Below are positions 3-62,340 of a stretch of 64,000 nt of DNA, one piece after another. The stretch is from Alphaproteobacteria bacterium (lineage in GTDB: Bacteria > Pseudomonadota > Alphaproteobacteria > UBA828), in NCBI GenBank assembly GCA_965214705.1, contig OZ243972.1:320001-384000 (forward strand), read 5' to 3'. Below the pieces are notes generated by a model. The model did not search any database. It was not told the origin of the DNA and saw nothing but the letters and a program-made list of their open reading frames with translations. Positions within the stretch are counted from its first letter, which is position 1. The number at the start of each line of letters is the position of its first letter. A program made the translations under genes and the position numbers.

Positions 3-389
3 GGCCTACCGACCTACTACGACTGGAGGACGCGATCGGGCTGCTACTTCTGCTTCTATCAACGCAAGGCCGAATGGGTCGGTCTCGCTGATCGGCATCC
101 TGAGTTGTTTCGGCGTGCGGTCGCCATCGAGCGGAAGGTGTTGCGAGACGCCGGTGTTGACGGCGATGCCGATTTCCGCAGCCAAGCCATGCGGGGTCGC
201 CAGTACACTTGGTCCAGCGGGGAGACCCTCACGGAGCTGCTGTCCCGTCGGATCGAGATTCTTGAGCGGCATGAGGCTGCTAAGTCTCGTGCAGCCAAAG
301 TGCCGGCGAACGTCCCGCTGATCGAAATACTCACTGAAGCACTCGACGAGGACGACGACACCATACCCTGCACCGTGTGCGCATTGTGA
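3..389 (+). CDS. PAPS-reductase family protein, SspD/DndC-like (5' end outside window)
   Basis: Frame 3 is open from the window start: GLPTYYDWRTRSGCYFCFYQRKAEWVGLADRHPELF...YTWSSGETL...CTVCAL. The SGCxFCF motif and terminal CxxC match the SspD-type C-terminus as I recall it. Confidence 0.7.
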   Translation, partial: GLPTYYDWRTRSGCYFCFYQRKAEWVGLADRHPELFRRAVAIERKVLRDAGVDGDADFRSQAMRGRQYTWSSGETLTELLSRRIEILERHEAAKSRAAKVPANVPLIEILTEALDEDDDTIPCTVCAL

Positions 390-2008
390 GCGGTATGGCG
401 GTGGCGCCGCCCGGCGGACCGGGGCTCTCAGTTGCCCGGTTTCTCGATTCGCTCCCGGATCGAGATCTCAGAAGATTCTTGGAACCTGGTGTCCTGTCGG
501 TGTTGGACGCACTCTTCGGCGGCCGTATAGACGGCGAGGATCTGCGGCGAGTCGCTCGGACCTTGGTCGATTTCGATATCCTGCTCGGAGAGCCAAATGG
601 TCGGAAGCTTGTCCTAAGCCTCGTTCCTGATGAAAAGCGCGCCGAGTTGGAGGCCCGCGTCGGGCGGATCATCGCGGCGAGTCGCGTGAGCGAGTGGTCC
701 GAATCGGAGGTACGCCGGCTCCGCGACTTCTTCGGTCTGGTCGAGGAGCGGATCCTGCCCCCGCCGACGCCATCCACGGACACGATCACCCCGGTCTACG
801 GCCTGTTCGATCATCAGAGGAACGCCGTGTGCAGGCTGGCGCCGTTGCTGGCCGAGGATGAACGCCGAGCCGTTCTTCATCTGCCGACCGGGGTCGGAAA
901 GACACGGACAGCCATGCACGTGGTGGCGGAAACTTTGCGAGCTAACGAGCCGTCAGTCGTGGTTTGGCTGGCCTCCGGCAAGGAGCTGCTGGAGCAGGCG
1001 GTTGTGGCGTTCAAGGAAGCCTGGATGCACTTAGGAGCGAGGCAGCTCCAAATCGGAACCATGTGGGGCGACCGAATGCCGGATCTTGATCGCTTATCCG
1101 ACGGGTTTCTCGCGGTCGGGCTCGCAAAGGGCTGGGCGGCGATCTCGCGCACTGATCCAGATTGGGCAGTTCGGCTATCTCGACGGGTCCGGCTGGTAGT
1201 CTTCGACGAAGCCCACCAGAGCATCGCCAGAACCTATCGGCGGATCACCGAGGAGCTCACGCTGGACTTCAGGTGCGCGCTGCTGGGCCTCACTGCGACG
1301 CCGGGGCGGACATGGGCCGATATCGACAAAGACGGTGAGCTTGGCGAGTTTTTCGCCGGAAACAAGGTGACACTCGAAGTCCCCGGCAAGAATCCCATCG
1401 AATACCTCATCGAGAACGGATTCTTAGCACGGCCAAGCTTCCGGACACTCCTTTCGCGGCCCGGGCTCGTATTCAGTGAAGAGGAGCTTGCCCGCATCGC
1501 CGGAGGGTTGGACATTGCAGAAGAGATCGTGGTGGCCTTGTCGATGAGCGAGCAGTACGTGGCCGCGGTTCTGGATGCCGTCAACGAGTTGCTCGACGCT
1601 GGGCACAGGCGAGTGCTCGTCTTCGCCGCCACGGTGGACCACGCGCGGATATTGAGCGCGATTCTCGTCGCACGTGGCGTGCTCAGCAATGTGGTCACAG
1701 GTCTGACACCCGGGCGTGCGAGAGAGCACGCCATCAGGGCCTTCAGGTCCGATGACGACGTACCCATGGTCCTGGTCAACTTCGGCGTATTGACTACAGG
1801 GTTCGACGCCCCCAAGGCTAGCGCAGTCGTCATCGCCCGTCCCACTCGGTCCTTGGTGTTGTTTAGTCAAATGGTCGGTAGGGCAATTCGAGGTCCCAAG
1901 GCCGGTGGGACCGAGGCATGCGAAGTCGTAACCGTCGTCGATCCGAATCTGCCGGGTTTTGGCGATGTGGCGGCAGCGTTTCTGAACTGGGAGGACGTAT
2001 GGCAGTGA
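386..2008 (+). CDS. SF2 DEAD/DEAH-box helicase
   Basis: Motifs LPTGVGKT, DEAH, LTATP, TTGFDAP, QMVGRAIR. GTG at 386 overlaps the upstream stop (GTGA); alternative ATG at 395. Confidence 0.9.
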   Translation: MSGMAVAPPGGPGLSVARFLDSLPDRDLRRFLEPGVLSVLDALFGGRIDGEDLRRVARTLVDFDILLGEPNGRKLVLSLVPDEKRAELEARVGRIIAASRVSEWSESEVRRLRDFFGLVEERILPPPTPSTDTITPVYGLFDHQRNAVCRLAPLLAEDERRAVLHLPTGVGKTRTAMHVVAETLRANEPSVVVWLASGKELLEQAVVAFKEAWMHLGARQLQIGTMWGDRMPDLDRLSDGFLAVGLAKGWAAISRTDPDWAVRLSRRVRLVVFDEAHQSIARTYRRITEELTLDFRCALLGLTATPGRTWADIDKDGELGEFFAGNKVTLEVPGKNPIEYLIENGFLARPSFRTLLSRPGLVFSEEELARIAGGLDIAEEIVVALSMSEQYVAAVLDAVNELLDAGHRRVLVFAATVDHARILSAILVARGVLSNVVTGLTPGRAREHAIRAFRSDDDVPMVLVNFGVLTTGFDAPKASAVVIARPTRSLVLFSQMVGRAIRGPKAGGTEACEVVTVVDPNLPGFGDVAAAFLNWEDVWQ

Positions 2009-3412
2009 GCACATCCGGGGTCCAACTGAGCTTTTCCATCATTGATTCCGAAATGACGGTCAAGGCGATGCGTGACAGCGGTTACAAGTCCACGACGCAT
2101 GCGCTGGCTGAACTCATCGACAACTCGATCGAGAGTAACGCGACGGCTGTCGAGGTGTTCGGAACCAGTCGCAGGGATGCCCGCACCGGAAGATTCACCC
2201 TCACGACGTTGGCGGTCCTCGACAACGGTGAGGGCATGAATGGCGACACCCTGCGAGGGAGCCTTCGCTATGGTCACGGTACCCGCCGTGAGCGGAGAGG
2301 TATCGGCCGTTTCGGTCTGGGTCTTCCCAACTCCTCGATGTCGCAAGCGAAACGAGTGGATGTGTGGTCGTGGCAATCGGGTGCCACGAACGCTCTTCAC
2401 ACGCACCTGTCCCTTGACGAGGTGGAGGCCGGAGCGAGAGAGATTCCGGAGCTGGAACGGCTGGAGATCCCGAGCGTTTTTCGCGAAGCGAGCCGCTGCG
2501 TGTTCGGCGACTCTGGCACCCTCGTGGTGTGGAGCGACCTCGATCGTGTCGAATGGAAGCAGGCATCCACGACGTTTAAGCACACCGAGTTACTGATTGG
2601 GCGGATGTATCGGCGCTTCCTGGCGAAACAATCAGAACGTCTACATCGGGATGATCCGAGGGAATCTGAGATCGGATCACGACGCACCATCACCTTGATT
2701 CCCATTCGGGAAGACGGAGAAGTAACTAAAGTTCAGGAGGATGAAATTGTTGAGGTGAGGCCAAACGATCCCTTGTATCTAATGACAAGCACGTCTTGCC
2801 CGGAGAGCTTTGGCCCCGGCCCCATGTTCACGGAGCTTGAGGGAAGTCCGTTCCAGGTACCCGTGAGGTACCAGGGACGGGACTTCGAGGTTCGCGTTCG
2901 GGCGAGCTATGCACGCGCACACGTCCGGGATTCTTCCGCGCCCGAGGCAGATTGGCCCGAAGAGTGGGTCGGCAAGGACGCGGGACGCGCTCCGTGGGGA
3001 AAACATGCGGATCAGAACATGGGGGTCTCGCTGGTTCGGGCGCACCGAGAGATTCAGCTCGATGATTCCTGGGTCAGTGGCGACGACCCGAGAGAACGCT
3101 GGTGGACCGTGGAAGTCGACTTTCCGACAGCACTCGACGAAGTGTTCGGCGTGACCAACAACAAGCAGGGCACAATGACCTTTGAACGAAGCCGCTACGC
3201 GGAGTTAGCGGCGTAGAGTTCATTCATTTCCGAGGCGTCGCGGGTGCCGTTTGTTCTGTGCGTTCGCTTCCCGGTTGCGTCAGTGGCGCTCCGCCCGTCG
3301 GGTGGCGGATCCCCAGCAGCCTCCCGATCACCAGTGGTTAGTATCGACCCCTGCGACGGACCGTCGCCGGATCGGTCCGGCGGCGCGCCGTCGCGATCCA
3401 GGGAGATCGATA

Positions 3413-4291
3413 ATGACCGGGACCGCGTGCGACACGAACACCGTCACCCCTCTTCGCCAGCGCATGGAGGAGCAGCTCCGCATCGCCAATCTGGCCGCGA
3501 GCACGTCCAAGGCCTACATCTGCGAGATCAAGAACCTGGCCAGGTACTACGACGCCTCGCCGGACGAGCTCGACGCCGAGCAGGTGCGCCAGTGGTACCT
3601 GGGGCGGATCGACAAGGGGCTCAGTCCGGGCACGACCAACGTCTCCTTCGCCGCGCTGAACTTCCTCTACATCGACACACTCGGCTGGCCTGACCATGTC
3701 GCCGGCCTGCGCTCCCGCAAGAAGCCCGGCAAGCTGCCGCGCTACATGTCGGAGCAGGAGGTCGAGCACCTCATCCTTGCGACACCCGACCTCCGCCACC
3801 GTGCTGCCATTGTCACCGGCTATGGCGGCGGGCTCCGCATCTCCGAGACCTTGGCCATCAAGGTCGGCGACATCCTGTCGGAGAAGAAGCTGCTGCACAT
3901 CCCCTCCGGCAAAGGCGGCACCGAGAGAATGGCACCGTTGCCGGACATCGTCATCCACTACTTGCGCGTCTACTACAGGAACATCTGGCCGCGTCCGACG
4001 AGCTGGCTCTTCTACGGCGTCTCGCTCGACAGGCCCATCGCAACGGAGACCTTGCAGGCCGCCTTCAGGAGGGCGCGCGACATTGCCGAGCTCGACCGCA
4101 GCTACACCTTCCATTGCCTGCGCCATTCGGCGGCGACCCATCTCCTCGAGCGCGGCGGCGATATCGAGGTGATCCGGGACATGCTCGGCCATCGAAGCGC
4201 GAACACGACCCGTCACTACGCCCGCGTCACCGGCAAGATGTTCGAGGGCCTCGACCACCCGATCTCAGGCTTCGCAGCGTTGCGCAACTGA
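3413..4291 (+). CDS. Tyrosine recombinase/integrase
   Basis: GLRISE, GKG, HCLRH, LGH...TRHY; RBS GGGAG before ATG 3413. Confidence 0.9.
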   Translation: MTGTACDTNTVTPLRQRMEEQLRIANLAASTSKAYICEIKNLARYYDASPDELDAEQVRQWYLGRIDKGLSPGTTNVSFAALNFLYIDTLGWPDHVAGLRSRKKPGKLPRYMSEQEVEHLILATPDLRHRAAIVTGYGGGLRISETLAIKVGDILSEKKLLHIPSGKGGTERMAPLPDIVIHYLRVYYRNIWPRPTSWLFYGVSLDRPIATETLQAAFRRARDIAELDRSYTFHCLRHSAATHLLERGGDIEVIRDMLGHRSANTTRHYARVTGKMFEGLDHPISGFAALRN

Positions 4292-4297
4292 CGGCGC

Positions 4298-5539
4298 GTG
4301 GAGGCCGAACGCGCGGGCGTGGCGGAGATCTTCCGCCGCGCCGGCGCCGCTTTCCGTGAGCGCCACAAAGGGCGCATCGACGCCGCCCGGCTCAAGGTCA
4401 TGGGCGCCATCGAGGCGTGCCGCACCGCCGTGCTCGGCGGCCACATGTACGCCTGCGAGGGCTGCGGGCGCGAGCATCCGCTCTTCAACTCCTGCCGCAA
4501 CCGCCACTGCCCCACCTGCCAGGGTCTCGCCGCCAACCTCTGGAGCGAGGAGCGCGCCGGGGACATCCTGCCGGTGCCCTACTTCCATGTGGTCTTCACC
4601 CTGCCCAAGGAGGTTGCCGCCATTGCCTTCTGCAACCGCAGGGTGGTGTTCGACATCCTCTTCCGGGCCGTCGCCGAGACCCTGCGCACCATCGCCGCCG
4701 ATCCCCGCCACGGCGGCATGCGCATCGGCGGCACCGCGGTCCTCCATACCTGGGATCAGAAGCTCCGCTTCCACCCGCACCTGCACGTGGTCGTGCCCAA
4801 CGCGGGCTTCGACGTAGACAGTGGCGAGTGGAAGACGGGGAGCACCACCTTCCTCGCCCCCGTCAAGGTCCTCGGCAGCCTGTTCCGCCGCCTCTTCCTC
4901 GAGGAGCTCGCCCGCGCCCACGGCCGGGGGGACCTGGAGTTCCACGGCACCCTCGCCCACCTCGCCAATCCCGGCGAGTTCCACGCCACGCTTGCCGCCG
5001 CCCGGGCCAGGGACTGGGTGGTCTACGCCAAGCGGCCCTTCCGCGGGCCTGAGCAGGTCTTCCGGTACCTCTCGCACTACACGCACAGGATCGCCATCTC
5101 CGACAGCCGCATCGTCTCCTTCGACGGCGAGACGGTCTCCTTCCGCCACCGAAAGCCCAAGGCGCCGGGGCAGAGAAAGCCGCGCTACGGCATCGCCACC
5201 GTGAGCGCCGACGAGTTCATCCGCCGCTTCCTGAGGCACGTCCTGCCGGACGGCATGCACCGCATTCGCTACTTCGGCATCCTCGCCAACGGCTGCCGCG
5301 CCAGCACGCTGGAGAGAGCACGCCAGGCTCTCGGCGCCCTCGGCTGCGCCGCCCCCGAGGGAAGCGTGGACGGCGCTCGGGCCGAGCCCGACGAAGAGCC
5401 CGAGATCGGCACCGCGCCCGTGGCCTGCCCCCACTGCGGCGGCGTCATGCGCCTCGTCCGCGAAATCCGCCGCCGCCATGAGCCCCGCTCGACGCGCGGC
5501 CCGCCGGCGCTGCCGCCGACCCACAGGGGGAAACCGTGA
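4298..5539 (+). CDS. IS91-family (Y2 HUH) transposase
   Basis: Zn-binding CEGC...SCRNRHCPTC, HUH motif HPHLH, YLSHY. Confidence 0.93.
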   Translation: MEAERAGVAEIFRRAGAAFRERHKGRIDAARLKVMGAIEACRTAVLGGHMYACEGCGREHPLFNSCRNRHCPTCQGLAANLWSEERAGDILPVPYFHVVFTLPKEVAAIAFCNRRVVFDILFRAVAETLRTIAADPRHGGMRIGGTAVLHTWDQKLRFHPHLHVVVPNAGFDVDSGEWKTGSTTFLAPVKVLGSLFRRLFLEELARAHGRGDLEFHGTLAHLANPGEFHATLAAARARDWVVYAKRPFRGPEQVFRYLSHYTHRIAISDSRIVSFDGETVSFRHRKPKAPGQRKPRYGIATVSADEFIRRFLRHVLPDGMHRIRYFGILANGCRASTLERARQALGALGCAAPEGSVDGARAEPDEEPEIGTAPVACPHCGGVMRLVREIRRRHEPRSTRGPPALPPTHRGKP

Positions 5540-6614
5540 GACGCCCGCTCGCTTCGGCCCCGCGCAACGGCGCCAAAGCGCCGACGCACGACCGAACCTG
5601 TCTCCGCTTGAGCCGGGCTGACAGCCCTCGGCTCACACCCCGCTCAGTCCTCGCAGCGTGCGCCCGCATGCCTGCCGAAAGACCGGCGCGAGCGTCGATT
5701 TTATGCGCAACTCTGCTGCCGGTGGATGCCGCCTGACGCTGACATCAGCGCACTTTCCACATAGCTCAACTTCGCCTCTCGTGGCCCGCGGCTTCGTTCA
5801 AAAGGGTTGGGCAGGCTCTCTCTCGAGAGCCTGCCCAACCCTTAACCTTCAGCGTCTTGCCCGGTTTGACTGGAAAAGAGAATCGCTTCCCGATGAGGAA
5901 TCGAGCGGTGATGTTCGCCGCCGGATGGAAGAAGAGGGAGATCACCGAAGCTACCTTCTGGATCTTCGCAAACAGATCACGAACGCGATCGAGCTACTCC
6001 GGCCTCGGTCCCGCCAAGCCAAGCAACCCCGTGGTAAGCGACACGTTCTCGATGAAGATCAGAAGGCCGACGCCAAGGCGACCGCTGCAATAACGCGCCG
6101 AATGCAAGAGGGCCACGAAGGCGAGTCCGACAAGGCGGGCGAATCAGGCTCCGCGGAGGAACAACGGGAAGCGCAAGTCGAATCCCTCACTGAGAAACAT
6201 CATTTCGACCAGACGGACGCGCTGCAGGAAATTGATGAGACGATTCGGGCGGGAAACCGCGTACGCTGGATCCAATCGGCGCAGTCCAGTCCTGCGTTCT
6301 TCGACGTCGAATCGTTGCCCAATGTGATTCAGGTCGCTCTCAACACGGACCATCCGGTGCACTCGCACCTCTACGACATCATGCATCCAGATGTCGAGGA
6401 CATGACCGACGACGAGGTTCGGGAACGACTCGCGCGAGCCGCCGCGGCGTTCCGCATCCTCATTTATTCGTGGGCACGCTACGAGGACGAGCAGACCGAA
6501 CGGGACCGCCGCCGGGTCCGAAACGCCCGGTTGGAGTGGGGTAAGTACGCGGAGGAATTCTTCGACGAGGATGACGATTCGGTTCCCCCGACGGATCTCG
6601 TATAGGAATTCGTC

Positions 6615-7526
6615 GTGGCCGGCAGTGATCGTGATACTCAAGGTGCCCGAATCCGGGCCCTCTTCGAGCGTGCAGACGGCGAGGTCGCTGTGATTGCGCC
6701 ATTCATGAAGGTCGACGCACTGCGCTCTCTGCTCGAAGTCATCCCCGCCGATTTGCATCTGCGTTGCGTCTCCCGCTGGCTTCCGAAGGAAATCGCCGCC
6801 GGAGTCTCGGACCCGGAAATCCTGGATCTGCTTGAGGCGCGTGGCAACTTCAGTCTCTTCCTCGTGGACCGGTTGCACGCAAAGCTCTACATCGCCGGTG
6901 ACCGGTGTTTCGTGGGTTCGGCCAACGTTACCCATGCCGGGCTTGGAGAAGGCGGTGATGGCGGCAATATCGAGGTCCTCGTCGAGTCGACGGTCAACAA
7001 CCCTGGAGTCGCGGCTACGCTTAAGGAGATCGCTCAAGCTGGGCGAGAAGCGACAAGGAGCATGGCGCGGACGGCTCGGCGGCTTGCCGACAGCCTTGCC
7101 GATTCGACGAGACCTGCGGTTGCGCCTGATGTCCCCTGGTTTCCCAGGAGTCGCCGTCCCGAGCAGGCGTACGGCTTCTATGCGCAGCCGCCGAACGGTT
7201 TCGTAGGCGCGGCCGATCACGTTCTTATCGCGGACTTGGCAGGCTCAAATCTACCACCGGGTCTCAACGAGCAGGAGTTTAAGGATGCGATTCGAGAGTT
7301 GCTTGCCGCTATACCACCCGCCGAAATCCTCCTTGAAGGTTCGGGGGACATGACGCTTACCCGAGCCGACGCGAGTTCCTGGTTGGAGACGGTCACCGGA
7401 GATGATTTCTCCACCAACGACTTGTGGATTGCGTTCGTCAACTGGATGGTGTGTTTCTTTCCTGACTGGGTCATGAAACAGGAGATATCGGAGGTCGCCC
7501 TCCGGCGCGCCCGGTTGCTGGGCTAG
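6615..7526 (+). CDS. Phospholipase D-like (HxK) nuclease domain protein
   Basis: IAPF...RLHAKLYIAGD...GSANVT; starts 9 bp after the ATPase stop. Confidence 0.8.
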   Translation: MAGSDRDTQGARIRALFERADGEVAVIAPFMKVDALRSLLEVIPADLHLRCVSRWLPKEIAAGVSDPEILDLLEARGNFSLFLVDRLHAKLYIAGDRCFVGSANVTHAGLGEGGDGGNIEVLVESTVNNPGVAATLKEIAQAGREATRSMARTARRLADSLADSTRPAVAPDVPWFPRSRRPEQAYGFYAQPPNGFVGAADHVLIADLAGSNLPPGLNEQEFKDAIRELLAAIPPAEILLEGSGDMTLTRADASSWLETVTGDDFSTNDLWIAFVNWMVCFFPDWVMKQEISEVALRRARLLG

Positions 7527-7833
7527 GATGAACTTCGCCGCAAGTGTTTACTCGGTGCGGTGGCTCCGCGCATATCTGAGAATCTTGTATTCGAGGAGGA
7601 TCAGGGCGAAGAACATGGAGGCCTTGCCGGACTTTCGCGAGTGAGTGACCGTGTTCAAGGGACGCGCGTGGGACGCGCGGCCTTCGCCGTTTTCACCCAC
7701 CAGCAATGTGTCGAATGGGTTCGTCAACATGATCGGGATGGCCGCTGGAGCCTGGAGCGGGTGGTTGACCTGGATCGGCACGAAATACGCAATGTGATCG
7801 GCCGATGCGCGGTGAGATGACCCCTTGTCAGTG

Positions 7834-8630
7834 TTATGGGTAGACGTCCTCCCGGTCCTCGCGATAGTCGCCGACGACCCATATGAAGCTCTGGATGTCG
7901 ATGCGGTCGCGCGGATCGAGGTCTGACAATCGGTTCGCGGTCTGCTCGGTGAGTTCGAGAAGGGACGCATAGACGTCGAAATTGAGTTGGGCCTCGTAGA
8001 CGGATGCGAGCAGGTGGCCCACCCGTGTCGCGAAATCCTTCGTCGCTTCCAGCTTCAGATACATGTGGACTTCGGGCCGCCAAAGGAACGGCAGGTAGGT
8101 CGCAACGGTTCACTTGGCGCGGTCGTTGGGCTTGAGCACCCTCTCGAGTTCGCGCAACGCAGGCTCTGTCCCGTCCTCGGCGAACCTGGCTGCGGCCCGG
8201 ACGAAGGCATCGGCGTCCCGGCCGTGCATCAGATCCGCGACCCGCGCCTTCTCGAGCGGGGACAGCATGTTCGTGGCGTGGAACACCGAAAGCACCGCTT
8301 CGCCGAATCCGACGCCAGTCAGCGCGTCATCCAGCGGCGCGTATTCGTCCAGCTTTCTCTTCGCTACCACCTTGTAGTCGCGCTCCATTGACAAAAAACC
8401 GTCGGAACGGAAACCGTTGGGAAAGAACTTGAGGAACCGGATCCGCGCGCCGTCGAAGCCGAAATATCGTGGGTCGGCCTTGCCCGCATCTTCGTGAAGG
8501 CGCCGCTAGACATTCCGTCGACGCATCTCTGGCCATCGACGAGGCCGTAGAAATGGTGGTTCTTCTCGACGAGGCGCAGATTGCGCTTGCCCAGCCTTCC
8601 CTGCCGGACCCCTCGAGCGCTAGCGGCCAT
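7834..8630 (-). pseudogene. Conserved hypothetical protein with a premature stop and frameshift
   Basis: ORFs 8110-8394 and 7834-8064 are in one frame, separated by TGA where W is expected (AK*TVATYLPFLWRP...DRIDIQSFIWVVG); the 5' part is in another frame. Confidence 0.6.
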
Positions 8631-9458
8631 GTCCTGTCCTCATAATCGTGGGGTCATCCTACCGCGCCGATGGCCGGGTTGTGTACCGCGTTCCGGCCAG
8701 GCAGCTGCCGCCGAATGCCGAGCGGGATGGGAGTAGTCCGCGGCACCGGACTGCCTACGATTCGCGTTCGGGAGATTCTGCGCCGAGGGTCTCGGATAGC
8801 GCAAGTCTCGCATCCTCCACGGCGATGACAACCAGTCGTCCTCGCCAAGCTTGGCAAGCTCGTCGCACTTCCGGAAACGCCAGCAGGTGGACGCGGCGGA
8901 TGGTGCCCTCGTTCAGGTCGGCCAGTTCCGTCGCGGCGGACCGGATCGGTGACGTATAGATTTGGGTCGCGTGCTTCGGACAGACCGGCCGGATGCGGTT
9001 CGTTGTCCGGCTCCGGCAATAGGGTGGAGATGAACTGCGGGATTTCGTTGACCTCGTGCTGACGATCACCCGCGATCAGGTCGCGCTCGCGGATGCGGGC
9101 GGATCGGAAGTGTGCCCCCGGGCCTCATGAAGCGCCGTCCCGAGTAGCTGCGGTGAAGGGCGGAATTGATTTCGGACTGTCTGGGTGCGGGACATCGGTG
9201 CAAATTCTCATTTGCGGCGCTGCGCACGGTAGCGCACTTATGTCGTCAATTGTTTGAAATCATTAGAATAAATGCGTTGCAACCTGCGATGGATCGCATT
9301 ACCTTCCGGCCGAATCCGGGCCGGGAAGGCAGTGAATTCCATGATGACGGTGGTTCTGCAACGAGGCGCAGAGACCGCAGCGACGGCGATGCGGCGGTGG
9401 ACGCGGTCCGTGCCGTCGGTAGCGGAACCGAGCGCGGTTGCGCGCCGGGGAGCACACC

Positions 9459-10256
9459 ATGCCAGACCGGGATAGGTGGCTCGTCCAGCTCCTCGTCGCG
9501 GCGATCTTCGTTGCAGGGATGGCGGTTCTGGTCACCGCCACCGCGCTGGTGCTCGGCACCACCGGCCATGAGTGGTACGCCGCATGGAAACTGACGCTGG
9601 TCGAGGCGATGCTCGGCGTCGGCTTCGACCAGTACGGGACGGTCGAATACCGAACGGCGGAGGGCGCGACCGTGACGGTCGAGCGCTACCGTCTCGCCTA
9701 TGCCATGGTTGAGCCGTGGCGGGCTCGCGACCACATCCTGTCGCTGATCGCTGACCGTGGCGTTCTGGGCGCTTGGACGGGCCTCGCTGTGTGCGTGCCG
9801 TGGCTGGGGGTCCGGGCGGCGATGTTCTCGCGGCGGTTCGGATCTGGGCGCGGCGCGGTCGTCGAGCCGGCGCCGCGGACCGGACCCGGATTCGCCGGCC
9901 GGATGCAGGACCCGGATTCGTGGAGCGACGGCGAGCTGATCGGGGCGCTTGTCCGGCGGAGCGGAGGGTTCGGGGTCCTGCTGGTGCCGGCGGCCGAGGT
10001 CGAGCGGCTGGCGGGCGGCCATGGCCAAACCAAAGGACAGCCCGCGAGGCCACCGGAAGCGCTATCGCCGTCGCCCGCGCCCGTCCTGCCCCCGTCCGGC
10101 GGCGCGGAGCAGGCCGGTGCCAAGGCAGGTAGGACCGTACAGCCGGTGGCTGCCGGAACGGTTGAGCGCCCGGGCAAGACGAACGCGGACAACCCAGGGA
10201 ATAGCAGGGCGGTCGCGGGCAGGAAGAAGTCTGGCAACCGCGAGCGCCGATTCTGA
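9459..10256 (+). CDS. Membrane protein resembling the N-terminal anchor of a type IV coupling protein; no ATPase domain
   Basis: Two hydrophobic segments and a low-complexity tail; stop overlaps the relaxase start (TGATG); no Walker A. Confidence 0.5.
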   Translation: MPDRDRWLVQLLVAAIFVAGMAVLVTATALVLGTTGHEWYAAWKLTLVEAMLGVGFDQYGTVEYRTAEGATVTVERYRLAYAMVEPWRARDHILSLIADRGVLGAWTGLAVCVPWLGVRAAMFSRRFGSGRGAVVEPAPRTGPGFAGRMQDPDSWSDGELIGALVRRSGGFGVLLVPAAEVERLAGGHGQTKGQPARPPEALSPSPAPVLPPSGGAEQAGAKAGRTVQPVAAGTVERPGKTNADNPGNSRAVAGRKKSGNRERRF

Positions 10257-13234
10257 TGGTTGCCTCGATCGGCGCGGTGGCAAGCCCATCGCAAGGGGCG
10301 AGCTACTACGAGAGGGACGGATACTATGCGAAAGACGATCCCGAACATCGCGAGGCGAGCGCCTGGGCGGGAAAAGGCGCGTCCGAACTCGGACTCGAAG
10401 GACCGGTCGATCCGGACACCTTCAAGGCGGTGCTGGATGGCGAGGTGCCAGACGGGTCCGGGCGGAAGCTCGGGCGCAAGACCCGGGACGGCGATATCCA
10501 GCACCGTCCCGGACGCGATCTCACCTTCTCCGCGCCCAAGTCCGTCTCTCTCGCCGCGCTGATCGGCGGCGACGAACGCATCGTCGAGGCGCACGACCGG
10601 GCGGTCGGGCGCACGCTCGGATGGTTCCAGAAGAACGCCGCCGAGACCCGGATGCAAGATCCGGCGACCGGGCGCATGGTGCGCACCGGCGGCCAGAAGA
10701 CGGTAATCGCCACCTTCAGGCATGACACCTCCCGGAACCTCGATCCGGCGCTGCACACCCATTCGGTGATCGCCAACATGCTGCAGGGCGCCAACGGCAA
10801 GTGGCGGACCATGGCGAACGAGAGTCTCTACGCCTCGAAAATGCTGCTAGGGGCTATGTACCGGAGCGAGCTCGCGGGCGAGCTTGCAAAGCTCGGCTAT
10901 TCCATCGAGAAGACCCACGCGGACGGGCGCTTCGAGGTCGCAGGGGTATCCAGACACATTATAGATGCGTTCTCCACACGCCGGGCCGAGATCGAGGCGG
11001 CGATGGCCGAGCGCGGCCTCGGCGAGACGGCCGGGAACCAGCATCTCGCCCGGCGCGCGGCGCTGATGACGCGCGCGCACAAGCGGGAGGTCGACAAGGA
11101 GGCGCTGCGCGGGACCTGGGAGAAGCAGGCCGGGGAGCTTGGCTTCGACGCGAAGGCGCTCGCCGCATCGGCGATGGAACGGAGCCGGGACGCGGCCGGC
11201 AAGGGCCGCACCGGGGCGAGGGGACCGGGCAAGGACGGTCTACCCGGTGCGGCGCGCCAGACGGACCTGTTCGAGCATGCGGCGCAGGCGGACCACCCCG
11301 CACGCGAGGCCGTGGACTGGGCGCTCGCGCATCTCTCCGAGCGCGACGCGGTGTTCGCCTCGACCGACCTGCTCGCGGCCGCCCTCGCCTACAGCCCCGG
11401 CGCGGCCCCGGTCGGGGCCATCGAGCGGGCCGTGAATGATCTGAAGCGCGAGGGCCTGTTGCACGACGCGCCACTGCTCGAAGGCGGCGGCGGGCTCACC
11501 ACCGACAAGGTCATCGCTGGGGAACGGGAAACGATCGCGCTGATGCGCGGCGGCGCGGGCCGGGGCAAGGCGCCGATGCGCGGTTGGATGGTCGACCGGC
11601 ACCTGCGCAAGGGACCGCTCACGGCCGGACAGCAACAGGCGGTGAAGCTGATCCTCTCGGAGAAGGACCGCACCGTCGGAGTGCAGGGCTATGCCGGCAC
11701 CGGCAAGACGCGGATGCTCAACCGTGCCCGCGCGCTCGCGGAGAAGAAGGGCTGGCACATGGTGGGGCTCGCTCCCTCGGCCTCGGCGGTGCAGACATTG
11801 GCCGCGGAGTCCGGCATCGAGAGCGAGACGCTTCAGCGGTTCCTCGCACGGAACGCGGGCGTCGTCGAGGGCAGACTCACCAGGAAAGGCGCGCGGGAGA
11901 TGCGCGCCGCGTTTGCGAAGACCGTGCTGGTGGTCGACGAGGGTTCGCTGGCCTCCACCGTCCAGGCCCGGGATCTGCTCAGGATCGCGGGCGAGCTTCG
12001 CATCCCGAAGCTGGTGCTGGTCGGCGATGCGAAGCAGCTCGATGCCGTGGACGCGGGTAAGCCCTTCGCCCAACTTCAGCAGGCGGGCATGAAGACCGCG
12101 GTGATGGACGAGATCATGCGCCAGCGCAATCCGGACCTGAAGGCTGCGGTCGAGGCGAGCCTCGCGGGCGAGATCGGCAGGGCGTTCGAGAAGCTCGGCT
12201 CCAACGTCGCCGAGGTGAACCCCGATAACATCGCTGGCGCGGTCGCCGCGCGCTGGCTCGCCCTCTCCAAAGAAGAGCGCGAGCGCACCGGGGTGGTGGC
12301 CCCGAGCCACGAACTGCGCGAGGGGATCAACGCGCACATCCGCGAACGCCTCGCCCGCGAAGGACGGATAGTCGGGCCGACTCTCGAAACACAGCGCCTG
12401 GTCTCCAAGGGCTACACCAACGCGGAGAAGGCGCTGGCGGCGAACTACGCCCCCGGAGACGTGGTCGCGTTCCACCGCGCCTACAAGCGTCTCGGCGTCG
12501 AGAAGGGCGACGAGCGCCGCGTCATGGGCGTCGATCACGGGAAGAGGACCGTCCAGCTCGAAGGCCCGGACGGCTCGACCGTCGACTGGAAGCCATCGCA
12601 GATCGGCGGACGCAGGGGCGGCACGGAGGCCTACCGCGCCGAAACCATCGAGCTTCGCGCGGGCGACCGCATCCGCTGGACGCGGAACGACGCGGGGTTG
12701 AAGCTCGTGAACAGCGCCACCGCCGAGGTCGCCGGTGTCCGGAACGGGCGGGTGACGTTCGGGCTGGAGGACGGCCGGAACCTGACACTGACCCGAGGCG
12801 ATCCCCAGTTCCGTCATCTCGACCATGCCTGGGCCTCGACCGTGCACGCCTTCCAGGGCCGCACGGTGGACAACGTGATCGCCGCGATGGAGGCGAACCA
12901 CCCCCACCTGACGACGGGCAAGTCCTTCTATGTGGAGGTCTCGCGCGCCCGCGACCGGGCGGAGCTCGTCACGGACGACGCGCAGGCGCTGAGGGAACGG
13001 CTCGAGGCGGTGACCGGAGAGCGCATCTCGGCGCTCGAAGGGATCGGCGAATCCGTCCGGCCCGAGCACGGGAAGGACACCAAAGCCTCGCTCGACCGGG
13101 AGCGGAGGGACCGGGAGACCGCCGCGCCGCCGTCGCCGGACAAGGGCATCGAGCACGAGGCCGTGCCCAGCAAGGCCCCGGAGCCCGAGCCTCCGTCCCG
13201 TGGCAAGGTCGTCGAAATGGACATGGGGATGTAA
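10256..13234 (+). CDS. MobF (TrwC/TraI-like) relaxase-helicase
   Basis: YYERDGYY, DLTFSAPKSVS, HDTSRNLDPALHTH; helicase motifs GYAGTGKT, DEGS, STVHAFQG. Confidence 0.95.
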   Translation: MVASIGAVASPSQGASYYERDGYYAKDDPEHREASAWAGKGASELGLEGPVDPDTFKAVLDGEVPDGSGRKLGRKTRDGDIQHRPGRDLTFSAPKSVSLAALIGGDERIVEAHDRAVGRTLGWFQKNAAETRMQDPATGRMVRTGGQKTVIATFRHDTSRNLDPALHTHSVIANMLQGANGKWRTMANESLYASKMLLGAMYRSELAGELAKLGYSIEKTHADGRFEVAGVSRHIIDAFSTRRAEIEAAMAERGLGETAGNQHLARRAALMTRAHKREVDKEALRGTWEKQAGELGFDAKALAASAMERSRDAAGKGRTGARGPGKDGLPGAARQTDLFEHAAQADHPAREAVDWALAHLSERDAVFASTDLLAAALAYSPGAAPVGAIERAVNDLKREGLLHDAPLLEGGGGLTTDKVIAGERETIALMRGGAGRGKAPMRGWMVDRHLRKGPLTAGQQQAVKLILSEKDRTVGVQGYAGTGKTRMLNRARALAEKKGWHMVGLAPSASAVQTLAAESGIESETLQRFLARNAGVVEGRLTRKGAREMRAAFAKTVLVVDEGSLASTVQARDLLRIAGELRIPKLVLVGDAKQLDAVDAGKPFAQLQQAGMKTAVMDEIMRQRNPDLKAAVEASLAGEIGRAFEKLGSNVAEVNPDNIAGAVAARWLALSKEERERTGVVAPSHELREGINAHIRERLAREGRIVGPTLETQRLVSKGYTNAEKALAANYAPGDVVAFHRAYKRLGVEKGDERRVMGVDHGKRTVQLEGPDGSTVDWKPSQIGGRRGGTEAYRAETIELRAGDRIRWTRNDAGLKLVNSATAEVAGVRNGRVTFGLEDGRNLTLTRGDPQFRHLDHAWASTVHAFQGRTVDNVIAAMEANHPHLTTGKSFYVEVSRARDRAELVTDDAQALRERLEAVTGERISALEGIGESVRPEHGKDTKASLDRERRDRETAAPPSPDKGIEHEAVPSKAPEPEPPSRGKVVEMDMGM

Positions 13235-13669
13235 GAACGCCCCCGTGGCCGCCACGTGTCTGTTCTGACCGGCGGCGGAAACACCGGAGCAGCCGTGGAT
13301 CGCTTGTTATAGGCGCTTTATAGGCGCTGCCCCATGAATGGGTGGTTCCGCGTCACTGTTCGGGTCGCTCAGCAAGCCGGCGCACCTGCGTTGTTCCCCG
13401 TTGTTCCGTACAGGGTTGACATCGTCCGTTCGACCCCGCAGAATACATCTTGGAACAACTAGGAACAACGCTGTGATCGAGTTGAGCTACGCCGCTTCGC
13501 ATCCCCCGGCACGGAGGCCAATCTGGACGGATGGCTTTCGCCATGCGCCGCGCGGACCACCACGTCATCGGCCAGGTGTTGGCCAAGAAGTTCGTCCGGA
13601 CCGAACGATCCTTGCAGGTTCGGGCCGGCGGGATTACGGACACATGTTATCGGACTCAGGATCAAGACC

Positions 13670-15973
13670 ATGACTGCAACTATATACACCGCATCGAAAT
13701 CCCGATCGAACCGTCCGGGCTGGTCGGTTAGCTTTCGTCATCCGCTACGCAGTGACGCGAGAGGCAGGCCGGGCCTGAAAATGCGCAGGGGATTGGGTAC
13801 GACGGACGAAGACAAGGCGGATCGGCTTGTCCAGGAAATGAACGTTCTTCTTTCTGATCGTGCATGGTGGAACGCGAACAGGCATGCCGATGCCGAGAAG
13901 CGGTTTTCACAGATCGTCGTCGATGCCTTCTACGACGAGATCCAGGCTGGTCGGGCAGATTCGGAGGCTCTCCGCGAAGAGTCGATACCGCTTCCCGGTC
14001 ACGAGCAAGGCTTTTCCCGGGTTCTGTTCGTCGGAACGACGGGGGCCGGCAAGACCTCGCTACTCAGGCAGCTGATCGACTCTGACCCGGACAGGGACAG
14101 GTTTCCCTCGACGGCTCCGGCAAAGACGACGATAGCTGACATCGAGGTCGTGCAGAACGAGGGTGACTATCGGGCTGCTGTCACGTTCTTCACAGAGTTT
14201 CAGGCTCAGTCGAGTATCGAAGAGTGCATCGTCGATTCGTGCCTGGCCACTCTTGATCGGCAGCCCACTGACAAGGTAGCCGAACGATTCCTAAACCACC
14301 GGGATCAGAAGTTCAGGCTCAGCTACGTACTTGGCGGATGGAATCAAGCTTCCCCGTCGGGTGAAAGCGATGAAGACGAGTTTTCCTTCGACGCCGAAAC
14401 AGAGACAACCGGCGGCGGGCAAGATGACGATGCTGTAACTGTATCCGAGCAATCCGCGAATCGCGAGGCTCTCCGAGGATTTCTTGAACGAATAGATGGA
14501 CTGGTCGCGTCGGCGGAGCAGCGATTGTCGAACGACCTTGGGATTGATCCCGGCGATACGAGCGGCGGCGATCGCGAGGCGGCCAAGCAGCTCATGGAGG
14601 AGAACTTCGAGGAATACGTTGCCGGGGAAGAACTATTCCAGGAGCTAGTCCAGGACGTGCTCGACTGTGTGCGCGCGCGTTTCGATCTGATCACCGAGGG
14701 CAGTCTGGAGCGGTACCGCTCCGGCTGGCCGAAACGCTGGACGTTCGAAACCGCGGAGCGCGGCCAGTTCATTGCTCAAATTCGCTGGTTTTCCAGTAAC
14801 GACTGGCGCCAGTTCGGCCGACTCCTGACGCCGCTTGTTGACGGCATCCGTGTGAGGGGTCCTCTTTTCCCGTCATTCGTCGAGACAGGGCCGCAGCTCG
14901 TCCTGATCGACGGCCAGGGGCTGGGTCATACACCGGATTCCTCGTCCAGCGTAACGACGCACATCACCAGACGGTTCGACCACGTGAACGTGATCCTGTT
15001 GGTGGACAATGCGCAACAGCCGATGCAGGCAGCGCCGCTTTCTGTTCTACGAACGGTCGCCCATAGTGGCCATAGCGAGAAGCTGGCAGTCGCGTTTACG
15101 CACTTCGACCAGATCAAGGGACCGAATCTGCGGACGTTGTCCGACAAGCGCGATCATGTGATGGCATCGGTTCTGAACGCGTTGTCGAATCTGCGCGATG
15201 ATCTCGGAATGTCCTTCGTCAGGAGCATTGAGCACGGAATCGACGCTCGGTGCTTCATGCTTGGCGGGGTCGACCGGAACCTTGGGCGCTTGAGGAGTCG
15301 GGCAGGAGACTACATGCGTGATGCGCTCCGAGCGCTCGTCCAGTTCTGTGAGGACGCCATTTTGCCGCCGGAGCCGCCGGAGGCGAGCCCCGTCTACGAT
15401 CCTTCCGGCATCCCGTTTGCCGTTCGAGAGGCGGTCTCGAACTTCCAGGCGCCCTGGCTTGCCCGCTTGGGACTGGCCTCTCACGAAGGAGTCAGGAAGG
15501 AGCATTGGACGCGGGTGAAGGCGCTGAACCGTCGAATTGCCGGCGAACTGGACGATGAGTACGACACGCTCAAGCCTGTTGCCGACTTGGTTGCTCGACT
15601 GAACGAGGCCGTTTCCCGCTTCCTGGACGTGCCCGTCGGATGGACGCGGGAACCGGCGGACGATCAGGAGCGTCAGGCTGCGATCGCAGGCATACAGAGG
15701 GTTGTGTCGTCTGAAGTACACGAACTGGCGCTTCGGCGTATCGTCGAGCGCCACCTCGCTGACTGGCGCACAGCTTACGATTTGCGTGGTAGAGGCTCGA
15801 CGTTTGTGCGGGCTCGCGCCATTCGCGGAATCTATGACGATGCCGCTCCTTTGCTGGACGCCATTATGCCGCCGCCGTCAAAGCGGTTCCTCGCGGAAAT
15901 TCGGCGTATCGTGGTCAACGCGATCAGGACAGGCGGTGGAGAGGTCAAATCGGATATCACACTGCATAACTAA
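13670..15973 (+). CDS. Large dynamin-like P-loop GTPase with N-terminal basic domain
   Basis: G1 GTTGAGKTS, G3 DGQG, G4-like THFD; helical C-terminus; 767 aa. Confidence 0.7.
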   Translation: MTATIYTASKSRSNRPGWSVSFRHPLRSDARGRPGLKMRRGLGTTDEDKADRLVQEMNVLLSDRAWWNANRHADAEKRFSQIVVDAFYDEIQAGRADSEALREESIPLPGHEQGFSRVLFVGTTGAGKTSLLRQLIDSDPDRDRFPSTAPAKTTIADIEVVQNEGDYRAAVTFFTEFQAQSSIEECIVDSCLATLDRQPTDKVAERFLNHRDQKFRLSYVLGGWNQASPSGESDEDEFSFDAETETTGGGQDDDAVTVSEQSANREALRGFLERIDGLVASAEQRLSNDLGIDPGDTSGGDREAAKQLMEENFEEYVAGEELFQELVQDVLDCVRARFDLITEGSLERYRSGWPKRWTFETAERGQFIAQIRWFSSNDWRQFGRLLTPLVDGIRVRGPLFPSFVETGPQLVLIDGQGLGHTPDSSSSVTTHITRRFDHVNVILLVDNAQQPMQAAPLSVLRTVAHSGHSEKLAVAFTHFDQIKGPNLRTLSDKRDHVMASVLNALSNLRDDLGMSFVRSIEHGIDARCFMLGGVDRNLGRLRSRAGDYMRDALRALVQFCEDAILPPEPPEASPVYDPSGIPFAVREAVSNFQAPWLARLGLASHEGVRKEHWTRVKALNRRIAGELDDEYDTLKPVADLVARLNEAVSRFLDVPVGWTREPADDQERQAAIAGIQRVVSSEVHELALRRIVERHLADWRTAYDLRGRGSTFVRARAIRGIYDDAAPLLDAIMPPPSKRFLAEIRRIVVNAIRTGGGEVKSDITLHN

Positions 15974-16346
15974 CGGAACGACGATTTCAGGCTGGGTGCG
16001 GACGCGGAGCCGCTCAGTCGCCCGGCCCTCGGCTTTCCGCGCGGCTTCGAGATCGCTCGTGTTTGTCGTCGGTTAGGCTCGCAACCGCGCCGTTGACGGG
16101 CCGAAGTCTGGCGTGCAGGGAATCGTCGGGGGTGCATGGCTTGGGTTGATATCGGAGCGATTGTTCACGAGTATCGTAGCACCCAATCCGTGCGGCGATG
16201 AGCCCGCCGTTCGAAGGCGCGATCACGCGGCACGGCGCCAGAAGGAGCGACGTCGGGTCCAGGTCCGGGGTGAGTTTCGTCCCATCGCAGGACCCGGCTT
16301 GCGTCGCCAGGCGGCTGGAGCTTCGCTGAACGATGCCGCGAACGGT

Positions 16347-16721
16347 TCACGCTGGGCCTTCATTCATAGTGTCGGCCATCGCACCGTGGGCCGCGCCGAC
16401 GAGTTCGTCGAAGTCTTCCTGGCTCATCTGCTCCGTGTTGAGCATGGTCAGCATGTGGACGGCGCGGTAAATCGCTTCGATGAGCGCGATGTGTCCGGGC
16501 GACAAAGTGGCTGGCGGATGCTCGCCGAGCCGATCTTCGGCGAGAGCGGGCGCGCCCGAACGGACGAGCTCGCCGGCGGGAACAGCGTGCCGTGCTGCGG
16601 CCTGCTCGATCAGATCCCACTCGGAGTCGGAGAAACGGATGGAGTGAGGGTGGCGCGCACTGCCACGGTTTTCGCCGGACTGGTTGCTCGTTCCGCGAGG
16701 GAATCTATCTTTCCGGGTCAA
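16347..16721 (-). CDS. Ribbon-helix-helix (MobC/CopG-like) protein
   Basis: HSIRFSDSEWDLIEQAAARHAVPAGELVR; paralogue at 36187-36588. Confidence 0.7.
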   Translation of the reverse strand: MTRKDRFPRGTSNQSGENRGSARHPHSIRFSDSEWDLIEQAAARHAVPAGELVRSGAPALAEDRLGEHPPATLSPGHIALIEAIYRAVHMLTMLNTEQMSQEDFDELVGAAHGAMADTMNEGPA

Positions 16722-17606
16722 CTTTCCTGTTCCCTGTCGCTCGTCATCGGTTACGGGCTTGGCCCATTCCAGTCACGAAAGCCGTCCCGGGCCGCTCGGT
16801 TCCAGCCGAAAATCCCGTGTCCCGTGATGGTTAACCTGCCGGAGTCGGGGCCTCGGAATGGGGGTGTGGCGGCCACGGGCGGGGACCGCAACGCTGGGCC
16901 GAATCGCGGCGGCGCGTCTTGGAAAGGCCGCACTCAAACTGATTGTTCACGGTAACACGCCGTCTTACGCTCGGCAATCGCGTGCAGTCAGAATGAGTGT
17001 TTTCGCGGTCGGGCGCAGGCATGCGCCGACAGGGATGCGAAAGCGGCGTGTATGCGCTGAGACTACACGCGATCCGGCATAGACGAGGCGTTTCATGTCG
17101 TTGAGAGCGCACGGGGATGCAGGTCAGGCGCGCGCTGGGAGTTGAGGGCACCATAGGTGCGTTCCGGTGTGAGAACTGAACGCCGCAGGGCGTAGCGATA
17201 GCCTGGAATCCGAGTGAGAGCGATGAGGGAATCGCCGCCGGCGCAGGATGCGCTCGGGAGCCGCCGCGGCGCTTGAGCGGCGGGCGGTGCGGCCGGAGCC
17301 GCGGGCAGTCGTGCGCAGCACGCTGCCGAAGGCGATGGCGGTGGTGCCCGCACTGGTGCGGCCAGCGGTGGACGACGCAGTGCGGAGCGCGGTGTACGGC
17401 GAAGCCGTCACCGGCGACGCACGGAGTGCCGCGGCGACGAGCCGAGGCGCTGCCCGCAGCCGGCCAGGGCGAGCGAGGCGAGGTCGATGACGAGCGCGGC
17501 GCGCAGCGCCGGCGTGAGGATGACACGGCGGTGAAGACACCAGTGCCGTCGAACCTCGCAGCGAGCGTGTCGGCCCGGCAACGGCGGTGAGCGAAGCGAG
17601 CCGCCG

Positions 17607-17724
17607 GGCAAGCGGAGCGCGCAGCGACCGAAGGGAGCGGAGGCGCGAGGGATACCCGCCCGAAGGGCCGAGACCGCGCAGCGGGCTCGGCAGGGTAGCC
17701 CGGTCGCGAAGCGACGCGCCCAAC
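17607..17724. repeat. ~117-bp hairpin-rich direct repeat, copy 1
   Basis: Near-identical to 19336-19452 (GAGGGATACCCGCCCGAAGGGCCGAGACCGCGCAGCGGGC...GGTCGCGAAGCGACGCGCCCAAC). Confidence 0.9.
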
Positions 17725-18055
17725 ACCGTCGAACGGAGACCTGCACACGCATCCATGTTCGGCACCAGCACCAGCATCACGGACACCAGCATCGGTGTTC
17801 GCATCGTTGCCGACGGCGACGGCGATGGCGTTGGTGAGCGTCCGTTGCCGCGAAGCGCAACGACGGCGGGAATACGCTCGCGCTGCCGATGGTGACACGC
17901 CGAGCTCGCGAGGCGGTGCAGGGGAAGAGCGGCGGAGCCGCCGCGGAGCGCGACGCCGCAGGCGGCGGACGCGGCGGGCGGCGAGGCGGTGGTGTCTGAC
18001 CAAAGAGAGAGGGCCGCACCGCCGAGGCGATGCGACCCTGTGGTGGCGATGGCGC

Positions 18056-18982: not shown

Positions 18983-19335
18983 GAGTGTCTCCTGATTCGA
19001 GAGTGAGTGTTGAGCCTCGCGGCCCGTTGTCGCCGGAAGCGCGTCTCCCGACGTTGGCCTATTGGTTCACGCGCGCGCAGCGCAGCCACCGGGGCCGCAG
19101 GGCATGGCCCATCGGCGTGCGCGAGTGGTGCGGGCGCAGGGAGCGAAGCGACTGAGCCACGGTCGCGCGCGCCGATGGGACTAGGCGCGCCAGCGCCGTT
19201 GCCCTGCGAGTCCCGGCCGGAACGGAGCGAAGCGGAGTGAAGGACCCTGCCGCAGGCAGGGTTGGCGCAGTGAGCACGTGTGGGACAATGGGCCTACGTC
19301 GGGAAGAGAGCTCCCTCCCCTTGCGTGCTTTTCTT

Positions 19336-56831: not shown

Positions 56832-57051
56832 GCGTCAGCCCTCAAGGACAGCGCCGACGGCCTCGGCCGCCTCGCGCACCATGGCGTCGGACAAATGCAA
56901 GTATTTCAGCGTCGTTGCCGGATCGCGGTGCCCGAGAAGACAGCCGATGGTCAGCACCGTCGTAAGCGGTATCGAGGCCCCATACTTCCAACGCATCTGA
57001 TTTCGCGGCTGACTCTTGGCCTTGGCAAGGAGCCTTGGAGGAGGCATCGCG

Positions 57052-58001: not shown

Positions 58002-58094
58002 GGCGAGACGCAGGCGGGTCCGCAGATTTTTGTCGAGGTCCCGCCTGCACTTTTCCCTGGTCACGCATTGGCGAATCGGATTAAGGGATCGGCC

Positions 58095-62218: not shown

Positions 62219-62340
62219 AGATATTCCTCCTGCATTCACTGTTGCGGCCGGGGCGAAAACACGGACCGGTTCCGTGTTCTTCGGCCGAATCAGGAGGAGA
62301 AATGCAACGCTATGTCAGTGTGTTAGAACCGCAGGTGCGC

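Follow-up and report, generated by a model that had tools for sequence, protein, structure and literature searches.

Three or four types of effector are known from phosphorothioate (PT)-based defence: DndFGH, PbeABCD, SspE, and SspFGH. SspE is a single protein that combines a DUF262 NTPase with an HNH-type nuclease (PMC9646914) and is reportedly stimulated by PT and non-toxic without it (PMC8092258, PMC9646914), whereas SspFGH, a three-gene effector beside sspBCD in Vibrio anguillarum FF-93, reportedly damages non-PT DNA and can be combined with different SspBCD modules (PMC8092258). Among 2,678 sspBCD clusters, 7.3% had SspFGH and 7.4% had SspE, and about 85% were without a known partner (PMC8092258). 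In the PT-linked PbeABCD system, PbeA is a fusion of an HKD nuclease with a superfamily 2 (SF2) helicase and is accompanied by a CxC ABC ATPase (PbeC), a small protein, and the DndE-like PbeD (PMC10853773). Prokaryotic MORC and paraMORC restriction-modification (R-M) operons were predicted in 2008; they are laterally mobile and encode a GHKL+S5 ATPase, an SFII helicase, and a nuclease that is sometimes of the HKD type, and the predicted role of their ATPase was to form a DNA loop from mark to cut site (Iyer, Abhiman and Aravind, PMC2292703). Here, we analyse a 64,000-nucleotide stretch of an alphaproteobacterial genome (the window; contig OZ243972.1, G000:C1:320001-384000 in our numbering of this genome), which begins inside an sspD gene and continues with genes for a helicase, a MORC-type ATPase, and a nuclease.

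Listing of open reading frames (ORFs) and searches against protein families place all four genes on the plus strand of positions 3..7526: first the end of sspD, then genes for an SF2 helicase, a GHKL ATPase of the MORC type, and a phospholipase D (PLD)-family nuclease with a single HKD motif. We read the last three (the trio) as an exchangeable restriction, or effector, partner of SspABCD that would be coupled to PT, ATP-dependent, and inactive in this genome; we infer this function from sequence, and give the reading a probability of roughly 0.68. The trio is apparently an undescribed effector cassette assembled from known domain types. The genes, and the insertion sequence (IS) that interrupts one of them, are:

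3..389, plus strand: 3' end of sspD, 128 codons, with its start upstream of the window (PADLOC SspD, E 1.4e-31, profile positions 157-276 of 277)
377..2008, plus strand: SF2 helicase/translocase, 543 aa (Pfam ResIII, DEAD, Helicase_C)
1999..3183, plus strand: N part of the MORC-type GHKL ATPase, codons 1-395, holding the GHKL domain and most of the S5/transducer domain (HATPase_c_3, E 2.8e-19; ORF 1918..3216)
3184..5849, plus strand: IS91-family IS, 2,666 bp, with no target duplication and a left flank ending in YTT
3251..4291, plus strand: tyrosine recombinase gene of the IS, start codon uncertain (Phage_integrase, E 6.7e-33; Phage_int_SAM_4)
4298..5539, plus strand: IS91-family (Y2) transposase gene (Y2_Tnp, E 2.7e-54; Zn_Tnp_IS91; NCBIfam transpos_IS91, 382.5 bits against a cut-off of 125)
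5802..5843, no strand assigned: 42-nt palindrome just inside the right end of the IS, an opposite-strand self-match in every copy
5850..6605, plus strand: C part of the MORC-type ATPase, codons 396-646 and stop (gapless alignment to columns 396-646 of intact homologues; inside ORF 5658..6605)
6615..7526, plus strand: single-HKD PLD-family nuclease, 303 aa (weak PLDc sequence matches, clear PLD-nuclease fold)

The sspD and helicase genes overlap by 13 nt, the helicase and ATPase genes overlap by 10 nt if ATG 1999 is taken as the ATPase start, and 9 bp separate the ATPase and PLD genes; the start/stop overlaps are conserved. A scan of 7300..8300, downstream of the PLD gene, for terminators and promoters was empty. 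The original prediction, made from the letters of the window, had described four co-oriented genes with overlapping or 9-bp junctions and an ATPase disabled by an insertion. That layout was borne out, and the insertion proved to be the IS91-family element between codons 395 and 396. The remaining ssp genes, on which a PT-linked interpretation leans, lie directly upstream in the 20 kb preceding the window (L002, numbered separately):

L002 11754..13073: sspA, cysteine desulfurase (PADLOC, E 3.5e-128)
L002 13070..14077: sspB, DUF4007 (PADLOC, E 7.6e-104)
L002 14078..17548: sspC, BrxC-like ATPase (PADLOC, E 8.2e-302)
L002 17421..18389, running into the window: full-length sspD, PAPS-reductase-like phosphorothioate-writing enzyme (PADLOC, E 4.8e-107)

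The SspABCD module is complete, with each PADLOC profile covered nearly end to end and with Pfam matches to Aminotran_5, DUF4007, and PAPS_reduct.

Comparison with the described systems set the trio apart from each of them. Like SspFGH, it is a three-gene set beside ssp genes, but by description the only homology in SspF is a Walker A motif and in SspH an FtsK/SpoIIIE-like end (PMC8092258), whereas the trio proteins are SF2, GHKL, and PLD enzymes and gave no FtsK-type match in Pfam, PADLOC, or NCBIfam. Like SspE, the trio is tied to a PT-writing module, and the two flank the same sspABCD genes in Streptomyces yokosukanensis DSM 40224 (L060), where sspD is followed by a DUF262 frame of 777 codons, presumably SspE, and the trio sits on the opposite side of sspA; the trio proteins themselves are without DUF262. 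PbeA unites an HKD nuclease and an SF2 helicase, which the trio encodes in separate genes. The trio helicase matches only the helicase part of PbeA (PADLOC, E 5.8e-17, profile positions 251-435 of 672), a GHKL ATPase stands in place of the ABC ATPase, and neither an ABC ATPase, a DndE-like gene, nor a counterpart of the small protein was found in 3..7526. The MORC R-M operons are tied to DNA methylases, with no mention of PAPS or Dnd in the accessible portions of PMC2292703, whereas the trio lies beside sulfur-marking genes. SauUSI (7clg) and NgoAVII/CglI (4rct) are, unlike the trio, without a GHKL subunit or a PT link, and SauUSI attacks modified cytosine. DISARM resembles the trio in having a helicase and a PLD protein in a modification-linked defence, and the trio PLD protein matches DrmC weakly (E 9.2e-8; NCBIfam DrmC score 17.7 bits against a cut-off of 133), but DISARM needs DrmA and DrmB/DUF1998, and the trio shows no DrmA or DrmB match and no methylase.

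Other partial PADLOC matches were to MzaB (residues 13-171, 4.4e-14) and ZacB (3.8e-10). No PADLOC or NCBIfam model names the trio, and NCBIfam gave nothing above its cut-offs for the trio proteins. We found no description of the trio with Ssp in the full-text literature, subscription papers and supplements aside, and none in the accessible portions of PMC12839542, PMC10853773, PMC12914056, and PMC8569181. A paper on 'SspH, a HATPase family regulator' (PMC9137472) concerns an unrelated 142-aa Streptomyces protein and is a collision of names only. With partial PADLOC matches only, no NCBIfam model above cut-off, and an SspFGH that differs in domain content by description, the trio matches no already described module, as the original prediction had supposed.

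Multiple comparisons support a partnership between the trio and the ssp genes. To survey related loci, we used a profile of the intact ATPase to search a single genome of each species, obtained 193 pattern matches, 173 of which encoded a relative, kept the best 80 (L013-L092), and queried these by tblastn with SspA-D, the helicase, both ATPase halves, and the PLD protein of the window's genome. Seventy-six loci were informative, with an upstream flank of 8 kb or more beside the ATPase gene; L020, L038, L079, and L090 end too early and gave no ssp match. First, at least two of sspB, sspC, and sspD lie beside the trio in all 76 informative loci, and all three (at coverage of at least 50%) do so in 72. 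Second, the gene order helicase-ATPase-PLD beside ssp genes, whose conservation the original prediction had left to be established, is kept in 76 of 76. Third, the helicase gene is present in 78 of the 80 loci (not in L031 or L034) and the PLD gene in 79 (L090 ends before it), and 72 of the 80 have an intact, uninterrupted trio, defined by a helicase of at least 520 aa, an ATPase of 600-670 aa, and a PLD protein of at least 280 aa within 100 nt; the exceptions are six true disruptions (L016, L018, L031, L034, L037, and L041) and two contig ends (L081 and L090). Judged by these synteny counts, the arrangement is far beyond chance. The ssp genes are on the opposite strand from the trio in 38 loci (actinomycetes), on the same strand in 21, reversed for sspA alone in eight, and otherwise arranged in nine. 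Ssp linkage, gene order, and novelty thus all support the original proposal of an alternative effector module, while its two further elements, restriction and dependence on PT, keep the standing of a proposal.

Relatives with 58-91% identity occur, among others, in metagenome-assembled genomes labelled Rhodospirillaceae, Gemmatimonadota, Poribacteria, Latescibacterota, and Acidobacteriota orders, and likewise in ones labelled Nitrospirales, Spirochaetia, Gammaproteobacteria, Dehalococcoidia, and Acidimicrobiales. Such identity across very different groups points to recent lateral spread of the trio. Copies in Streptomyces and other actinomycetes are 42-49% identical. Plasmid records carry a relative in 13 cases, of which we examined four. 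In plasmid A of Trichormus variabilis ATCC 29413 (L093), a model cyanobacterium that can be cultured, the trio lies inside the ssp cluster, between a DndB-like gene and the cysteine desulfurase gene; the order over 879..15003 is sspB, sspC, sspD, two small genes, a 769-aa DndB-like gene, helicase, ATPase, PLD, and cysteine desulfurase. A gene annotated as a 'DNA phosphorothioation-associated putative methyltransferase' was also seen upstream on the other strand of this plasmid. The trio adjoins sspABCD on a Roseobacter litoralis plasmid and sspBCD on a Hymenobacter plasmid; the fourth, from Agrobacterium, is taken up below. RefSeq labels the trio proteins 'DEAD/DEAH box helicase', 'ATP-binding protein', and 'phospholipase D family protein'. 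The Streptomyces carriers (the SspE model strain among them), Trichormus plasmid A, and the Roseobacter plasmid would be tractable for experiments.

Pairwise identities show that the trio and the writers are separable units. Over 2,624 locus pairs, which are not independent and make the figures descriptive, Spearman covariation of identity was 0.86-0.88 within the trio, 0.87-0.92 within SspB, SspC, and SspD, and 0.57-0.69 between the two sets. In 39 pairs, the ATPases are at least 75% identical but the SspC proteins less than 35%; the reverse pattern occurs in nine. The L019 and L021 trios are 89/88/77% identical, with SspB/C/D only 35/25/47% identical. This tighter covariation within than between modules, together with the L019/L021 pair, shows that the trio has been exchanged as a cassette between different Ssp writers. 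In nine of the 80 loci, including L021 (6528..8394) and L019 (6591..8394), two extra genes that are not found in this window stand between sspD and the helicase gene, one for a 363-384-aa DUF262 (GmrSD_N) protein and one for a ~240-aa protein without a family; the pair look like an add-on resembling the N-terminal half of SspE. No SspE-type DUF262 gene lies beside the locus in the window's genome or in the genomes to which L047, L013, L030, and L015 belong; one is present in that of L060. The DUF262 matches in the window's genome are on another contig, or are distant and interrupted by stop codons.

In each of the trio proteins, the catalytic residues do not vary among 38-39 sequences, even where identity falls to 26-40%. 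The helicase consists of an N-terminal domain, residues 1 to ~140, which matched no family, followed by a RadD/SauUSI-like motor; against solved structures, a 38-sequence profile matched RadD best (3.5e-36) and the SauUSI motor at 1.8e-16. Invariant in those 38 sequences are G172, G174, and K175, which we take to be the Walker A motif, D277, E278, and H280, presumably the DEAH box, and T308-R311 together with Q498, G501, R502, and R505, which we assign to motifs III and VI.

For the ATPase, the best sequence matches in the PDB were MORC2 chains (1.5e-8). An AlphaFold model of the intact L013 homologue (predicted local distance difference test score, pLDDT, 81) had MORC2 with DNA as its top Foldseek match, and its residues 15-456 align with the GHKL and S5 domains of MORC3, SMCHD1, and MutL. 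GHKL residues E38, N42, D75, G77, G79, G103, G106, and G108 do not vary among 38 sequences, nor does an NNKQ loop at residues 387-390, and the MORC-specific motif of the S5 fold, GhXhhpXXRhl (PMC2292703), fits GVSLVRAHREI at residues 342-352, with five positions invariant. If the invariant GHKL residues are read as motifs I-III, the protein appears to carry the four motifs that mark a MORC ATPase. The last ~190 residues are modelled as helical with a small beta unit and resemble nothing in the searches made. The C part (codons 396-646) gave no Pfam, PADLOC, or NCBIfam match, and the C-terminal 251 aa found only unnamed clusters in the ESM Atlas, with recognition below the usual mark.

In a model of the PLD protein (pLDDT 91), residues 1-157 resemble the restriction-type PLD nucleases SauUSI, BfiI, and NgoAVII R, and residues ~166-303 form a helical, winged-helix-like domain. 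The HxK...GSxN motif stands on the PLD fold in one copy per chain. Single-HKD subunits of Nuc and BfiI dimerise into one active site, and the trio subunit, having a single HKD motif, would likewise have to dimerise. A complex prediction for the intact MORC homologue with the PLD protein scored 0.00 in two runs, a result that bears neither way on binding.

In the mechanism that we envisage, SspABCD would put sulfur marks on the cell's own DNA, the RadD/SauUSI-like SF2 motor would use ATP to move the complex along DNA, and the PLD subunit, with a single active site formed by its dimer and a DNA-binding-like tail of its own, would serve as the nuclease. The MORC-type ATPase would act as an ATP-driven dimerising clamp or switch, or as a DNA looper, and would license cutting as MutL does for its nuclease, a role also proposed for MORC ATPases linked to R-M systems (PMC2292703). 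The PT state of the DNA would decide whether the complex cuts, with marks either blocking cutting, as reported for SspFGH and DndFGH, or activating it, as reported for SspE. A more tentative idea is that the MORC-type ATPase is itself the reader or licensing switch for the DNA-backbone mark, a plug-in engine that senses PT, or its absence, regardless of sequence context. Were this so, the switch would let the cassette join unrelated SspBCD writers, perhaps even lone SspD-like enzymes, and would explain a share of the 'orphan' Ssp systems; MORC action guided by marks would then have a precedent in prokaryotes. One more effector cassette, and a widely transferred one, would fill part of the gap left by partnerless sspBCD clusters and bring a MORC-type ATPase into PT biology.

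The copy in the window has been disabled by the IS. The ATPase gene is cleanly cut between codons 395 and 396, and intact 646-aa homologues (77-93% identical) read ...GTMTF|QRLAR... straight across the junction, so the gene is otherwise whole and no residues were lost. No further defect is present in the helicase, the PLD protein, or either half of the ATPase. A search of this genome with 3000..6000 found at least 42 full-length copies of the IS, including this one, on all three contigs (all 100% identical after rounding). Comparison of boundaries and flanks with nine other copies gave 99.8-100% identity, no target duplication, and a left flank of YTT in every case. A Y2 (HUH-type) transposase with a zinc-binding N-terminus, duplication-free insertion, and a short conserved target are features of the IS91 family, and GC content is ~0.70 within the element and ~0.61 around it. 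Two copies of the element also stand head to tail at C2:643960-649295. Because the trio is otherwise undamaged and this IS copy matches the others in sequence, inactivation of the cassette is recent.

The cut-off ATPase would still have its GHKL domain and the greater part of its S5 domain but lack ~250 C-terminal residues. The IS places the PLD gene 2.7 kb further from its promoter, and the genome has no second ATPase gene copy and a single sspB. With the ATPase split and the nuclease gene parted from its operon, the cassette is out of action in this genome, and the marking genes look intact. This copy is a natural knock-out, writers intact and effector broken, that would reveal whether marking continues without the effector.

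Several observations weigh against an effector partner coupled to PT. The link between the activity of the trio and PT is one that we infer from gene content and neighbourhood. SspABCD-SspE defence from S. yokosukanensis worked without the trio (PMC9646914). In L017, profile positions 24-162 of sspD are deleted (about 7940..8388), and in L026, sspD is split by an IS66 element (5171..8388), with the trio frames intact in both loci; an intact trio beside a destroyed sspD argues against strict self-toxicity, or a simple model in which unmarked DNA is killed. Decay on the trio side includes an IS5-type element in the helicase gene (L041), an IS630-type element between the ATPase and PLD genes (L018), an ATPase that is shortened (L016) or altered (L037), and loss of both sspD and helicase (L031 and L034). 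Decay of trio versus ssp genes is accordingly not clearly one-sided, and the classical R-M asymmetry, in which the effector is often broken and the writer never, was not borne out. The two proteins of the IS91-family element gave no tblastn match in the 80 related loci, so the disruptions there are due to other elements. Finally, on Agrobacterium tumefaciens plasmid pAtCFBP7129b (L094), a distant relative (ATPase 34% identical) has no ssp writer gene in view; positions 5705..18985 encode the ATPase, the helicase, a 360-aa third gene product, two hypothetical proteins, and a very large FtsK/SpoIIIE-domain protein, the last three forming a DndFGH- or SspFGH-like layout.

If the trio is an effector, it may work in the manner of SspE, with host PT switching the cassette on and the absence of marks leaving it harmless, a possibility that we regard as less likely than not. 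The persistence of intact trio frames in L017 and L026 fits such behaviour, as do the properties reported for SspE and the DUF262 and ~240-aa genes between sspD and helicase in nine of the 80 loci. However, only two loci have a broken sspD, both are metagenome-assembled, and the events may be very recent. In addition, a translocase joined to a nuclease is a design typical of enzymes that attack unmarked DNA, and no PT-binding pocket was identified in the trio.

An effector coupled to PT in either direction is also to be preferred to a self-sufficient, ATP-dependent restriction or defence cassette that is blind to PT and merely travels with ssp genes on mobile islands, which we consider unlikely. 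Swapping of the trio between unrelated SspBCD types, its survival beside broken sspD in L017 and L026, and the Agrobacterium relative would all be explained by such a cassette. DndFGH has been argued to be often functionally decoupled from DndABCDE (PMC10853773), and the combination of MORC ATPase, SFII helicase, and nuclease occurs with methylases too (PMC2292703). Nevertheless, shared travel on islands hardly explains why the trio adjoins ssp genes in every one of the 76 informative loci, in many phyla and three relative orientations, nor does it account for the 13-nt overlap of sspD with the helicase gene here or for the position of the trio between ssp genes on Trichormus plasmid A. Restriction blind to PT would also need another way to spare the host, and none was seen.

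A role as helper of the marking machinery or as a repair unit of RadD-like helicase, MutL-like ATPase, and nuclease, which would process nicks or intermediates of phosphorothioation or place or erase marks, could draw on the repair helicase RadD as the best solved relative of the helicase (3.5e-36) and on the tight coupling to sspD by overlap, but is highly improbable given that IscS-SspBCD alone modifies DNA in E. coli (PMC8092258), that the trio is divergent from sspABCD in 38 of 76 loci, that its PLD domain is closest to the restriction nucleases SauUSI, BfiI, and NgoAVII R, and that several genomes with intact ssp genes have lost or broken the cassette.

Two further genes bracket the block of ssp and trio genes:

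L002 9560..10831: P4-type integrase, upstream of the ssp genes
window 10256..13234: TrwC-type relaxase/helicase, downstream of the ssp and trio block

Because the integrase lies upstream and the TrwC relaxase downstream, the ssp and trio unit is probably part of an integrative mobilisable or conjugative element. A tRNA scan of the 20 kb before the window and of its first 20 kb found no tRNA attachment site for such an island. A RecD2-type helicase gene (L002 2941..4989, minus strand) is located outside the island, upstream of the integrase by ~7 kb, and a YspA/SLOG-domain protein is encoded at window positions 18056..18982 (minus strand). Mobile DNA is abundant in the rest of the window, with a group II intron reverse transcriptase/maturase, IS66 and DDE_Tnp_1 transposases, and three further tyrosine integrases at 28993..30567 (minus strand), 33424..35379, 36819..38324 (minus strand), 55671..62239, and 58068..59810.

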